From: Patellaria atrata CBS 101060
Taxonomy: Eukaryota
Length of the DNA: 64,000 nucleotides
NCBI GenBank assembly: GCA_010093705.1
Contig: MU006093.1
Location: forward strand, 429,557-493,556
Direction of reading: 5' to 3'
Below the pieces are notes generated by a model. That model did not search any database. It saw nothing but the letters and a program-made list of their open reading frames with translations, and had not been told where the DNA came from. The translations under genes were made by a program, and so were the position numbers. Numbering within the stretch: the stretch's first letter is position 1; the number at the start of each line of letters is the position of its first letter. Of the stretch, positions 29,536-62,827 are shown in pieces.

Positions 29536-29612
29536 TCTTCCTCTTCTTCTTCTTCTTCTTCTTCTTCTTCTCCTTCTTCTTCTTCTTCTTCTTCTTCTTC
29601 TTCATCTTCATC
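29536..29612. repeat. (TTC/GAA)n microsatellite, about 25 imperfect units
   Basis: Directly visible, about 160 bp downstream of the ALG13 stop. Confidence 0.95.
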
Positions 29613-48840: not shown

Positions 48841-50355
48841 ATGTCGTTCCAGGGCACTCCTCCTCCTCCAGGTGGACACTATCCCCGTAAGTTCCATACT
48901 ACGAAGATCAAGAGAAGAAACTAACATCTCCCAATAGCTCCCCCACAACCAGGCACGTCTCCTTGATCCCTACCTTTCCGAGTCCCCCATCTCTTAACAT
49001 ACCATTCAGGCACTCAGCAACACTTCCCCCCTCCCGGTCAACAACAGCAATTTCCCCCACCAGGCCAACAACAACAATTCTACCCTCCTCCGGGCGGCCA
49101 ACAGCAACAATCCTACCCTCCCCCACCGACCCAAAGCCCACCAGCACAGCAATACCCCCCTCCACCCCAAGCGCAGCAACAGCAATTCTCTCCTCCCCCG
49201 GATGCCCACTCGCATCGTGCCTCCTTCCAAGCGCCACCCCAGCAACAGCAGCAGCAGCACTTCCCCCCGCCCGGTGGAAATGTCGGGCACGCGCCCTCCC
49301 CTGGTCCGCAGCAGCAGCAACAGATGGTCCCGCAGCAACAGCAGCAGATGGCGCCGTTGAACATGAATGCGCCCGGTGCGCTGCAAGGGGGAGCACCACC
49401 GCAGCAGCATTTCATGGGCGCGGCTACGAACCAAGATGACGTGGGGACCTTCAACGGCGGGAGTTACAGGGTCAGTCATCGGGATACGAATTCAATTCTA
49501 ACGGTGCAATTGGCGCCAGGGGCGCCCATGATCGCTAAACCAGGTGAGTCCACATAGCCCCTTTCCACTCCATGTACCGAGTATGGGATGATACCGCGAT
49601 GTGATGCTGCGGTTACCAGATGATGATCGATACTAACCCCTACCCTAACCCCAGGCGCCATGATCGCAATGTCCCACACCGTAACCCTCAAAGGCGCGCT
49701 CAAGTTCTCGATGAAAAAACTCGTCACCGGCGGCGACATAGCCACATCAACTTACACCGGGCCCGGCGAGATCCTCCTCGGTCCCGAAGCGCTCGGCGAC
49801 ATCACCTCTATCCGTCTCACCGGCCAGGAGCAGTGGTCCGTCGGCAAAGACGCGTTCCTGGCCGCCACGCAGGGCGTCGTCAAGGAGTATAAGAGCCAGG
49901 GGTTCGGCAAGGCCATGTTCTCCGGGGAAGGGCTGTTCGTGTATAAGATTAGCGGACAGGGCATCCTGTGGATCACGAGTATGGGCGCCATCATCAGGAA
50001 GGATGTGAGTACCTCTTTCAGCCTATACCTCTCCTATGGGATTTTGAAAGGGAAAATGTATTGACGCTGAATACAGATGGTCGAGGGTGAACGCTACGTG
50101 GTCGACAACGGCCACCTCGTCGCGTGGAATTGCAAGTACGTCATGGAGCGTGTGGCGAGCGGCGGCATCGTGTCCGGACTTGCCTCTGGCGAAGGCCTCG
50201 TGTGCAAGTTCACCGGTACGTCTCTACCTTCACGCAGACATATCTCAACCCGCTAATTAACGATTGATACAGGCCCCGGCACCGTCTTCATCCAGACGAG
50301 GAACCCGATCGCCTTTGCGCAGTTCCTCGCCGCGCACTCCACTGGCGCGGCGTAG
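48841..50355 (+). CDS. AIM24: AIM24/DUF124-family protein with a long Q/P-rich N-terminus
   Basis: Six exons including a 15-nt microexon. [73 protein letters not shown]. The symbol denotes the family only. Confidence 0.85.
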
Positions 50356-51173
50356 AATGAGTTTTAGCTCCCGTGTCCAGTTACTTGCTGTCTCTTTGTT
50401 TGGCTTTCTATCATTCGATGTCTTGGATATGTATGCTAGGTCGTTTGGCTAGTTCTACTACCGAATATGAAAAACGAATCTCCTATTTGAAAACTTGTAT
50501 TGTTGCTCCCATTGTAGCCTTTGACTGCTTACATAACCGTGCCCAGCTCGTCCTGCTTATGTCATTGCATACCTTAGTAAATTCCGAACTAAGGTAGGAA
50601 GAGGCGCAGCCGTTCATTGCGCCTCCACCTTGGTAGCCTTGTAGATGTGCAGGTATGCCTTTGAAGGGTGGTACTGAACTGGTCGCGTTCCGTCCCGCAA
50701 GTAACGTTTCGATTGCTGGTAGGTGAGATGTTCTGTTCTCAAGTTTACTTCTGTACTGGACAAGGAGATTTTTTTCTTCTTCTTCGGCCTCAAATGTTTT
50801 TGAGACATTTTGTGAACGGATGAAATAGGCCAGCGGATGAAGTATCTAGAGTTGAAGCTGCTATCATACAGTACAGTATAGCACCCTCGATTTACCAACC
50901 TCAATCATTTCCCCCTTTCTCTATTAGTATCCCCGGTTCGCTGTATGGGAAGTCGATAACGTCGAGCGACGAAGGGACGCGCGGTGAATACACCGTAAAG
51001 TAATACAGAATCGGGGTTCGGGAGGTGACAAGAGTTTTTGAGGGAGGGAGGATTATCCACGCAGTCGGGAACCGTACGCAAAAATCGTTCAGTACGGATA
51101 ACTGAGATCGGTCGACTCCTCCCAGGGGAGGACGTCGTTCTAAGCGTGTTTCTCGCGCTTTCAGCTTGTCGAA

Positions 51174-53393
51174 ATGGTCGTACGGCAGAATGTGCGCTTT
51201 CCGTGGAAGAATGCTCTGCGGAAGGAGGTATCTGGTGCTAGAAATCAATCGGGCAGTGAATATCGGTGTGGTGAAAAAGACCAGTGTGGTGCGAAAGATC
51301 AATCTGGTACGAAAGATCAGTGTGGTGTGGAAGATCAATCTAGTGGTACAAAAGATCCCTCTTGTGCTAATGACCAATCTGGTACAGAATATCAGAGATT
51401 CAACGTCGAAAAAGAAGATCAGCTTTTTACGTTCTCAATCAACCTGAAAAATAAAAGTCCAACCCTAGTCCAGAAGATGGAGTACAAACCTCTCAACCAC
51501 TTCCGGAGTGAAATACGACTTGTCACCATCATTCCAGGAGAGGGGAGCCGGATCGAATGTACCATAAAAGTGGTATCACTTACCCTTCCTCCAGAGTATA
51601 CTGCGCTGTCTTACTGCTGGGGAAATCCGAAAGTTACCAGAGATATCTACATAGGTGACCATGTTTTGACGGTTACAACGAATCTTTATGCCGCCCTGAT
51701 GCACCTACGTTTGAAAGATAAACCAGTTACGCTATGGGTCGATTCCATTTGTATTAACCAGGCCGACATATCGGAGCGTAATCGACAGGTATCGTTAATG
51801 GGTGTGATCTATCGAAAAGCTAAGATGACAATTGCCTGGCTTGGTGAAAGTGATGATGAATCACACCAGTGTTTTGACATTTTGGAGTTTTTAGCTTGGG
51901 GACTTCAGGACCAGGCTGGGAATCAGTTTTATCACCGGTTGCAATTGAAGAACTTGAAATTCCAGAAGCTGGTAAAACTGTTCTCTCGTTGTTATTGGAT
52001 ACGGTCATGGATAATTCAAGAAGTTTGTTTGAGCCAAGATGTCGAATTAGTATGTGGGAACCGTCGATTAAACTGGAATGTCTTTTCTCAGGCTCTGGAG
52101 TATATCCAAAGAGACCCGGAACTATTTACGCCGGAGTTTCGGTTTCCTTCTAGCTATTATGAACATATCACGATGTTGAAGGCATGTAGAGAAGATATGA
52201 CTGGTGATGTGCCTCTTCACTTCGTTGATGCTGTCTCCAGATGTCGGCAGTCAATAGCTACGGACCCACGAGATAAAGTTTTTTCTTTGCTCGGGCTCGC
52301 GTACAATGGGACCGCATTCATTCCAGTTGTCGACTACGGTCAGAGTACTTCAGATTTGAATCTCGAATTGACTGTAACAGCGACTGACTTAACACGATCC
52401 TTGGATATTATAGTATTCCTAGCAGGATGGGCCAAAGAAACACGACGCTCATGGATGCCGAACTGGCTGGGTAATTACTGGGGAAGCTCGGACTATCGAA
52501 AGATAAATTACTTACGCAAACGCTCGTCTTTCTTGATGCCAAAAATACCAAGTTCGCTAGATCCACGCAAGGGGAAAAGGCCGATATCATATGGAGAATG
52601 CTCAGAATTAACTTATAAAGCACAATGGACGGCAACGCTTGATCATAGGATGAGATTCGATGTTATTGACAATGTTCTCCGAGTATTTGGCGTACAAGCA
52701 GGCATAATTGCGTCCGTTACTAGTGCGACCGCCGAAACTCCAGATTTGTCGTCAGAGAACTACACAGGGGTTAGTTTTCAGTATGCTCGTCCCTGGACAG
52801 CATGGCCTCATTCAAGATCACTCTGGTATCTTCTCTTCGGAATCAAGAATACGACTAACTTTCTCCGTATGAATACTCGGGAGGACCAAGTTAGCTTTGT
52901 AGCCCTCTGGAGTTCATTAACTGACCCAAATATAATGAGATGGCTGTCCTCTAACTACACCTTTCAAATCGATGGAATTGAGTTGGGTCAATACTTGGTC
53001 CCTATTCATCCAGAACACCCACTTGAGAACTATAATATCAACAGGCAAAAGAAACCTATTTACCTTGGAATACGCGAGACTATTGAACGGAAAGTCATTA
53101 ATATCAGGAATAGAGCTGCTTACGAGGAATGGTGTGAAATGATTCGAGATATCTTCGGCTGGGGTATGCGATTAGCAGTCACTCAGCAGGGAGATTTGGG
53201 CTGGGTAGATAGTGAAGCCCGTCCAGGTGACGTGATTTGGCTGCTAAAGGGTTGCTCTGTCCCAGTCGTACTTCGCCCGCTGCCTGGAGGTGGATGGAGT
53301 CTAATTGGAGATTCCATTATGGATGGTTACATGCAAGGTGAGGGTCTTCGAGGTGGGAAGGTGATTCAGTGGAAGAGTCTTCATATCCACTGA
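51174..53393 (+). CDS. HET-6-like heterokaryon incompatibility protein (HET domain plus conserved C-terminal barrel)
   Basis: Intronless. YKPL..EIRLV, YTALSYCWG, NLYAAL, LWVDSICINQ..ERNRQVSLMGVIY, YWIRSWIIQE, ATDPRDKVFSLLGL, RPGDVIWLLKGCSVPVVLR..LIGD..GYMQGE. The family-typical start is ATG 51477; ATG 51174 adds 101 aa. Confidence 0.92.
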   Translation: MVVRQNVRFPWKNALRKEVSGARNQSGSEYRCGEKDQCGAKDQSGTKDQCGVEDQSSGTKDPSCANDQSGTEYQRFNVEKEDQLFTFSINLKNKSPTLVQKMEYKPLNHFRSEIRLVTIIPGEGSRIECTIKVVSLTLPPEYTALSYCWGNPKVTRDIYIGDHVLTVTTNLYAALMHLRLKDKPVTLWVDSICINQADISERNRQVSLMGVIYRKAKMTIAWLGESDDESHQCFDILEFLAWGLQDQAGNQFYHRLQLKNLKFQKLVKLFSRCYWIRSWIIQEVCLSQDVELVCGNRRLNWNVFSQALEYIQRDPELFTPEFRFPSSYYEHITMLKACREDMTGDVPLHFVDAVSRCRQSIATDPRDKVFSLLGLAYNGTAFIPVVDYGQSTSDLNLELTVTATDLTRSLDIIVFLAGWAKETRRSWMPNWLGNYWGSSDYRKINYLRKRSSFLMPKIPSSLDPRKGKRPISYGECSELTYKAQWTATLDHRMRFDVIDNVLRVFGVQAGIIASVTSATAETPDLSSENYTGVSFQYARPWTAWPHSRSLWYLLFGIKNTTNFLRMNTREDQVSFVALWSSLTDPNIMRWLSSNYTFQIDGIELGQYLVPIHPEHPLENYNINRQKKPIYLGIRETIERKVINIRNRAAYEEWCEMIRDIFGWGMRLAVTQQGDLGWVDSEARPGDVIWLLKGCSVPVVLRPLPGGGWSLIGDSIMDGYMQGEGLRGGKVIQWKSLHIH
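51237..51401 (+). repeat. 18-nt coding minisatellite, 9 imperfect units (x-K-D-Q-S/C-G)
   Basis: Units include gaaaaagaccagtgtggt, gcgaaagatcaatctggt, acgaaagatcagtgtggt, gtggaagatcaatctagtggt, gctaatgaccaatctggt. Confidence 0.9.
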
Positions 53394-61695: not shown

Positions 61696-62827
61696 ACGTG
61701 TTTTACCACTCAAGTGGCCACCCCACTCAAGTGGCCACCCTATCAACATCAACACGCATCTTCGTACGAAAACAGAAATGGCAACATAGCAAGAACCTAC
61801 CGCTTCTCAAAAAGATGGTAGATTACTTCTTGCTCTACAAGCTCTTCAATCTAATTCAATTTTAAGCGTACGACAGGCTGCAAAAGTCTATAATATTCCT
61901 AAATCAAAAATTCAGAAGCGACTTCAAGGAGCAGCACCAAAACGCGAAGTAAACCAACAAAAACAAAAGATCTCCTCGTACGAAGAGAAAGCTCTTGTAG
62001 ATTGGATGCTTAGCCTAGATCGACGAGGCTTTCCCCCCCAGATTATTGATGTACGAAGAATGGTAAACACTTTACTTGCTGAACGCGGTCAGAATCCACC
62101 ACCAGAGCCTATTGGCAAGAACTGGGTTTCACGCTTTATCGTACGACAACCTGAGCCAAAAACACAATGGAATCGAAAGTTCTACTTATAACGCGCCAAA
62201 TGTGAGGACTCTTGTACGATAAACGCGTGGTTTCAACGCGTTCAAGAGACGCATCTCTCGTACGGCATCAACGATGAAGATATCTACAACTTTGATGAGA
62301 CAGGCTTCCAAATGGGTATCAGAAACGCCTCATAACGTCACTGAGCTTAAGAAGCAGACAAAGCTCGTGCGAGAGCTACTTCAGCGATCCTCACAGAGCC
62401 CTGTTAATCAAGCTGTGACTCAAATTATCAAGGGCTGTCATATGGCAATGCATCAGGCAGTTCTCCTTACAAAGGAAGTTCAGGAGCTTCGTACGGCGAA
62501 TGCGCGACGAGAACGAAAGAAGCAGCATCGTAGACGTTATATCTCGTATGAGACTACTCTTCAGGCTCAGCAAGGGCAGTTTCTTCTTAATAGAGCAGAA
62601 AATAGAGGGCAAGAGGCTGGTCAAACTGGTGAAGCCATTGTACGACAACGCGCGCCGCCAACGTGCAGTAAATGTGGGATTCAAGGTCATACTGCTCGTA
62701 CATGCTCAAATACATAAAGAATTAGCTAAATAAATTTTTAAATAAAATAATATTTATTTTGGTTAGGTTTTCGTACAAAGATGCGTGTTGATGTTGATAG
62801 GGTGGCCACTTGAGTGGTGAAACACGT
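61696..62827 (+). mobile_element. Non-autonomous, internally deleted Tc1/mariner (pogo/Fot1-type) DNA transposon
   Basis: About 60-bp TIRs (ACGTGTTTyACCACTCAAGTGGCCACCC..GTACGAAAAC) and a TA duplication at 61694-95 and 62828-29. Transposase from ATG 61778 with HTH-psq/CENP-B HTH, IGKNWVSRF, YNFDETGF, then a jump to the C-terminal CSKCGIQGHTARTC knuckle. Premature TAG and TAA. Confidence 0.95.

Follow-up and report, generated by a model that had tools for sequence, protein, structure and literature searches.

A gene for a HET-domain protein in Patellaria atrata CBS 101060 carries, within its own open reading frame (ORF) and ahead of the conserved protein, an array of 18-nucleotide (nt) repeats that would be translated as the hexapeptide x-K-D-Q-(S/C)-G. 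The gene lies in a 64,000-nt stretch of contig MU006093.1 (assembly GCA_010093705.1, positions 429,557 to 493,556 of the forward strand), which is referred to here as the window and in which all coordinates below are counted. The evidence favors, with moderate confidence, the interpretation that the array is a lineage-private coding minisatellite that gives a disordered N-terminal tail to an ordinary HET gene. HET is a fungal cell-death domain, and a cell-death role for the product of positions 51174 to 53393 is predicted from the domain. Few fungal cell-death genes are as numerous or as poorly understood as those with a HET domain, and any add-on that controls them would therefore be valuable. 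The original prediction had proposed that the array might be an activation, oligomerization, or allele-specificity module of this kind. There was no sign, however, that the tail is a signaling or recognition module; at most, it may serve as a spacer, the length of which could vary among isolates.

Identification of the HET gene

In its longest form, the gene is a single unbroken ORF of 739 codons plus a stop codon on the plus strand (positions 51174 to 53393). Upstream of ATG 51174, the first in-frame stop codon is encountered at 51141, and ahead of the HET domain, in-frame ATGs occur only at 51174 and 51477, the latter beginning the sequence MEYKPL; the frame is open for the 101 codons between them (51174 to 51476), as had been described previously. 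The HET domain (PF06985) was matched in Pfam at amino acids (aa) 142 to 283 (positions 51597 to 52022) with an E value of 1e-31 and a score of 110.7 bits (cut-off, 22.5), the match covering profile positions 1 to 146 of 146, in agreement with the earlier assignment to the HET effector family. A search of 5.8 billion proteins returned 219 relatives at E ≤ 0.001, mostly stand-alone HET proteins of 550 to 750 aa, one of which (P0112) bears the name het-6 in its source. The best relative, P0001, was 33% identical across 85% of the query; it begins at a Met that matches Met102 (MEY) of the ORF, and the homology reaches the last residues of the ORF. The HET gene looks intact because all of the columns that were invariant in an alignment of 82 sequences are present (S146, W149, D190, I194, Q196, E201, M209, R277, W279, Q282, E283, and D367), and it likewise looks like a single-exon gene. 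One of these residues, which include a Q-E pair (Q282/E283) described as functionally relevant, may correspond to the "relevant glutamate" of a published account (PMC9815663). These matches assign the predicted product to the stand-alone HET-domain proteins. Like the stand-alone HET proteins of ascomycetes (PF06985; het-6/tol/pin-c architecture), the product has an N-proximal HET domain, the invariant residues, and the C-terminal region of the 600- to 700-aa relatives; unlike them, it is far removed in identity from its closest relative and has a hexapeptide array that is found in no relative.

The locus has a public gene model, P0124, of 277 aa and 100% identity, which covers ORF residues 102 to 378 (positions 51477 to 52307). 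After the end of P0124, the ORF runs without a stop codon for 361 more codons, which align with the conserved C-terminal region of the family, and P0124 thus looks truncated at its 3' end. Neither the 739-aa form nor the 638-aa form of the protein was present in the protein collection when looked up exactly. With the starts of P0001 and P0124 as guides, the family-typical coding region extends from MEYKPL at 51477 to 53393, and the present analysis corrects the truncated public gene model.

Structure of the repeat array

The array occupies positions 51237 to 51401 on the plus strand. Nine 18-nt units had been reported, and the nine peptides given for them were read correctly; at the DNA level, however, 11 to 17 of the 18 bases fit the consensus in units 1 to 8 but just 7 of 18 in unit 9, and the array therefore consists of eight recognizable units and one degenerate unit. 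Tandem Repeats Finder detected a period of 18 nt at 51262 to 51337 (4.2 copies, 77% matches, score of 89) and a higher-order period of 36 nt at 51275 to 51395 (3.3 copies, 72% matches, 6% indels, score of 124). A degenerate unit motif was matched five times within the array and once, at chance level, at 52813, compared to 0.48 matches expected in the whole window, and none of 100 shuffles reached 6 matches. Apart from the chance-level match, scanning of the 64-kb window with the unit motif revealed no copy of the minisatellite outside the array, and the non-coding copies that the original prediction had suggested looking for were accordingly not encountered there.

As also claimed previously, the sole indel in the array is one of 3 nt (AGT, in unit 6). 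With a unit length divisible by three and no in-frame stop codon, the array can be read as repeats of a peptide, x-K-D-Q-(S/C)-G, that is hydrophilic and charged. The variation between units had been described as synonymous in this frame. This is true of some of it, in that 34 of the 232 pairwise base differences fall within synonymous codon pairs in frame 1, versus 16 in frame 2 and 19 in frame 3, but most of the variation is non-synonymous. Moreover, CAA is invariably paired with TCT/TCG and CAG is invariably paired with TGT; because the two Gln codons are inherited with the 36-nt super-unit, the Gln codon change is not independent evidence of selection. Altogether, 42 of the 162 bases deviate from the consensus (13, 11, and 18 at codon positions 1, 2, and 3, respectively), and the pattern of variation fits what a drifting minisatellite would be expected to show. 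We suggest that slippage or unequal exchange expanded an 18-nt unit, paired as a 36-nt super-unit, until about eight units were present, and that these may then have diverged by about 26% from the consensus. No RNA run containing the stretch was found; the two sequencing runs in which it was found represent one sample and are DNA-like (their contigs cross intergenic DNA and show no joints), and no differences were seen. In keeping with a coding array, a neighboring gene contains another coding-type repeat.

Evidence for translation of the extension

Codon usage in the extension was evaluated with a log-odds score trained on the 14 Pfam-supported ORFs of the window. The two unique flanks of the array, taken together (46 codons), scored 0.249 in frame 1. 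Of 1747 stop-free non-coding segments, 4.35% scored at least as high, and among coding segments the value ranks at the 66th percentile. The 26 codons that separate the array from ATG 51477 scored 0.358, which was reached by 1.5% of 7352 stop-free non-coding segments. Over its entire length, the extension scored 0.167, −0.073, and −0.655 in frames 1, 2, and 3, respectively, and the corresponding values for the HET core over its first 101 codons were 0.015, −0.401, and −0.46, so that frame 1 of the core actually fell below frame 1 of the extension. Furthermore, the 226 nt immediately upstream of 51174 (positions 50948 to 51173, plus strand), a candidate 5' leader, contain no ATG, compared to a mean of 3.84; only 3.5% of segments of the same length are ATG-free. 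From the flanks and the leader, we consider it rather probable that the extension upstream of 51477 is translated as a tail. Translation would most likely begin at ATG 51174, the first AUG past an AUG-free leader, and with this start the repeat would therefore form part of an N-terminal tail that is flexible and disordered. Extensions are frequent in the family as well: among the 111 relatives with an alignment reaching the start of the core, an extension of at least 61 aa was present in 19 (61 to 100 aa in 9 and more than 100 aa in 10), the others having 31 to 60 aa (13 relatives), 6 to 30 aa (31 relatives), or 5 aa or fewer (48 relatives).

Several observations weigh against translation of the extension, and most of them have been counted in favor of an untranslated array, i.e., a true start at ATG 51477 and a minisatellite in the 5' untranslated region or promoter that is open by chance. 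P0124 begins at ATG 51477, the best relative, P0001, begins at the aligned Met, and the 48 relatives with the shortest extensions begin within 5 residues of the core; the extension lengths of the relatives carry limited weight in any case because their gene models are predicted and may favor long ORFs. At ATG 51477, the start context is A in position −3 and G in position +4. Within the array, the frame 1 score was 0.098, a value reached by 18% of open non-coding segments, and frame 2 scored higher, at 0.294; the 20 codons ahead of the array scored 0.107, which 22% of open non-coding segments reach and which is uninformative. There was no clear excess of differences at the third codon position, and frame 2 is also free of stop codons across the array, such that two of the three frames are open. 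When 42 random substitutions were placed on nine consensus units in a neutral simulation, frame 1 remained open in 17 to 24% of the runs and frame 2 remained open in 43 to 60%. Because frame 2 is open too and some neutral runs stay open, the array by itself says little about translation, and the openness and variation of the array, from which translation had originally been argued, are weak evidence for it; indeed, an open frame across a minisatellite with a unit length divisible by three is weak evidence of function in general. It is the unique flanks that speak against an untranslated array, as they lack stop codons and resemble coding sequence in their codon usage (P values of about 0.04 for the two together and 0.015 for the stretch of 26 codons adjoining 51477). 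In addition, a transcript from upstream of 51174 would place four ATGs (51174, 51190, 51211, and 51370) before a start at 51477, the 226-nt ATG-free stretch stops exactly at 51174, and P0124 is a weak guide to the start codon because the model is itself visibly incomplete at its 3' end. An untranslated array is thus considered unlikely.

A weak in-frame intron candidate that spans the array also counts against a repeat-bearing tail. Removal of this 204-nt candidate (positions 51192 to 51395, plus strand) would leave a short mature tail, 33 residues long and lacking the repeat; alternatively, intron retention might yield both forms. Its donor, GTGCGC at 51192, is on a codon boundary; the sole branch-like sequence, CTAAT at 51367, is located 28 nt before the acceptor, a CAG ending at 51395; its length is divisible by three; and the coding signal peaks past 51399 and is weak within the array. 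However, the usual fungal splice donor is of the GTAAGT/GTATGT type, from which GTGCGC is far removed, and chance would be expected to yield one in-frame pair from the 32 loose donors and the two acceptors close to the single branch site. Nor is there any reason for a genuine intron to be stop-free and to have a length divisible by three. With its weak splice signals, this candidate appears improbable, and a translated extension that includes the array is the reading retained below.

Two other frames cross the array. On the plus strand, an ATG-started frame of 85 codons in frame 2 runs through it from 51190 to 51447, with the higher of the two scores inside the array (0.294 versus 0.098 for frame 1). 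This 85-aa ORF was rejected, as its flanks scored −0.455 and −0.555, and it probably owes its existence to the repeat. A minus-strand frame of 177 codons from stop to stop (50901 to 51434) was likewise rejected, as it contains no Met, has no Pfam match, and is open only through the repeat.

Properties and relatives of the tail

The structure of the protein was predicted with AlphaFold2 by using 82 sequences. The predicted local distance difference test (pLDDT) score was 32 to 45 for residues 1 to 99 and exceeded 90 from residue 101 onward. Prediction of the array as a structured module, a check that had been proposed along with the module itself, gave pLDDT scores below 50 and no strand in the array. 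The N-terminal tail is therefore predicted to be disordered; the folded part would start at Met102, with a private tail of about 100 residues ahead of it. The array segment (residues 21 to 76) has a mean hydropathy of −1.58, with 30% charged residues, 7% ILVFMWY, and 4 regularly spaced Cys residues.

Relatives of the tail were sought in several collections. HMMER searches over all 1.84 billion representative proteins returned just two matches (E = 3e-6 and 1e-4), both to unrelated low-complexity or repeat proteins, and a KDQ[SC]G repeat, which it had been suggested might be found on NOD-like receptors (NLRs) or other effectors, was carried by no protein in this set. The collection from which the set was drawn includes the annotated proteins of this genome; the product of a neighboring gene is present letter for letter, and P0124 is from the same 1.5-Mb contig. 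Because the annotated proteins of the genome are in the collection that was searched, the repeat is absent from every annotated NLR and effector of the fungus. Pfam, which includes models of the HET-s and sigma motifs, gave no match for residues 1 to 101 at E values up to 10, in keeping with the earlier remark that the repeat resembled no recognized motif. In the ESM Atlas, the best score for residues 1 to 101 was 0.79, which is under the level reached by shuffled proteins, and when the tail was compared with 144 family members by BLASTP, no match was better than E = 2.2. In metagenome contigs, no relative was obtained by a protein-based scan, and a two-unit DNA pattern had 0 matches. Judged by these searches, the tail is private to this locus or lineage and is without relatives. 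A "Q/R-F-N-V/I" motif situated about 22 to 26 residues before the HET core (residues 74 to 78 of the ORF and, in two relatives, residues 19 to 24 of P0002 and 10 to 14 of P0109) was considered and rejected, since it was noticed post hoc in 2 of 55 extensions and was not significant.

These properties bear directly on the proposal that the repeat is a functional module on a HET effector, acting through amyloid-like activation, oligomerization, allele specificity, or redox or metal sensing by Cys. An open and probably translated frame, the regular spacing of the four Cys residues of the array, and the concentration of differences in the first codon of the unit, the most variable one (13 of 42 differences), are consistent with such a module, and in other fungal incompatibility proteins, as described in a published account, specificity is carried by repeat arrays (PMC9815663). 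On the other hand, no relative of the tail was found among the 1.84 billion representatives even though the annotated proteins of the genome are in the source collection, no Pfam amyloid-motif model matched, and, in agreement with what had been noted before, no partner NLR is encoded in the window, as none of its 70 ORFs of at least 120 aa contains a NACHT or NB-ARC domain. The low pLDDT scores speak against a module as well, and the variation fits a drifting minisatellite. The N-terminal position of the array and its hydrophilic, charged composition are unlike the C-terminal, hydrophobic-patterned motifs described for effectors (PMC9815663). A functional module is therefore regarded as very improbable. 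Also very improbable is a more specific version, in which a translated module of variable copy number would gate or tune a TIR-like HET death domain, as an autoinhibitory or partner-binding tail, with its length or Cys content setting allele specificity or redox or metal sensing. If this were true, the gating tail would represent a type of control over HET proteins that is new, and the array would matter more if its length or sequence tracked incompatibility types among isolates.

Comparison with known systems

Among known systems, the amyloid signaling motifs of fungi (HRAM/HET-s, PP, sigma, and PUASM) are like the array in being short, repeated, Q/G/S-containing sequences beside a cell-death domain. 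In one account, these motifs are placed at the N-terminal end in NLRs and at the C-terminal end in HeLo, HeLo-like, and other effectors, the effector and NLR genes are usually neighbors, and the motifs are hydrophobic-patterned, with PP being G-hydrophobic-Q-hydrophobic-G and HET-s having a hydrophobic core (PMC9815663). The array differs in that it is at the wrong end of the effector, lacks a paired NLR, is hydrophilic and charged, has a 6-residue unit rather than one of about 17 residues or more, and matches no profile. Thus, an amyloid-signaling reading fails every feature that could be tested, and the activation or oligomerization role originally envisaged for the tail was not borne out. 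The hypervariable repeats of fungal NLRs (WD40, ANK, and TPR) also differ from the array, as each of their repeats folds as a unit and closely resembles the others apart from a few variable positions, whereas the array has 6-residue units with 72 to 77% DNA matches and no predicted structure.

The closest likeness is to fungal coding minisatellites, with which the array, having periods of 18 and 36 nt and a single 3-nt indel, shares a unit length divisible by three and in-frame expansion within an ORF, in this case that of a HET gene, that would give a low-complexity peptide repeat. Coding tandem repeats are best known in cell-wall proteins and not in HET proteins, and the present array, the translation of which is predicted, differs from them in the kind of protein. 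In-frame tandem repeats have been described as widespread in fungal proteomes (PMC6162428). In searches of the open-access literature, no report of a peptide repeat on HET proteins was found, and the word "hexapeptide" occurs 0 times in the main text of PMC9815663. The HET gene and in-frame fungal repeats are of kinds that are already known, and it is this array that is private to the locus.

When the model of the HET core (residues 102 to 419; pLDDT of 92.7) was compared with 48,161 solved chains, 11 of the best 20 matches were to TIR/ThsB structures and 6 were to nucleoside 2-deoxyribosyltransferases, with weak scores (best Z of 4.4, root mean square deviation of 3.6, and 103 aligned residues). 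A Foldseek search of the PDB with the full model gave no match at E ≤ 0.001. The modeled fold of the HET core may resemble that of TIR domains (SARM1, the IL-1R family, and bacterial ThsB) and deoxyribosyltransferases, to which the matches are weak. To our knowledge, no enzymatic activity is known for HET. Remote homology of HET to TIR, with a conserved Glu, has been published (PMC9815663 and PMC10197012), and the weak structural matches of the predicted core agree with that link and add little to it.

Other features of the window

The neighbors of the HET gene are housekeeping genes, namely, AIM24 on the upstream side, with its end near 50355, and MRP-S28 on the downstream side. At 49018 to 49351, in the region upstream of the exon with the AIM24 domain, there are three short tandem repeats with periods of 27, 35, and 24 nt, which are C/A-rich and Gln/Pro-like. 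The contigs of sequencing run X2 are fragmented into small pieces at 49056 to 50170. Farther downstream, an ORF fragment on the plus strand (61790 to 62188) contains Tc5 transposase DNA-binding and Psq helix-turn-helix domains and is probably a remnant of a pogo/Tc5-type transposon; a perfect 17-nt tandem repeat is located just upstream of it (61706 to 61740). Finally, a (TCT)n microsatellite of 24.7 copies with 91% matches is present at 29536 to 29609.

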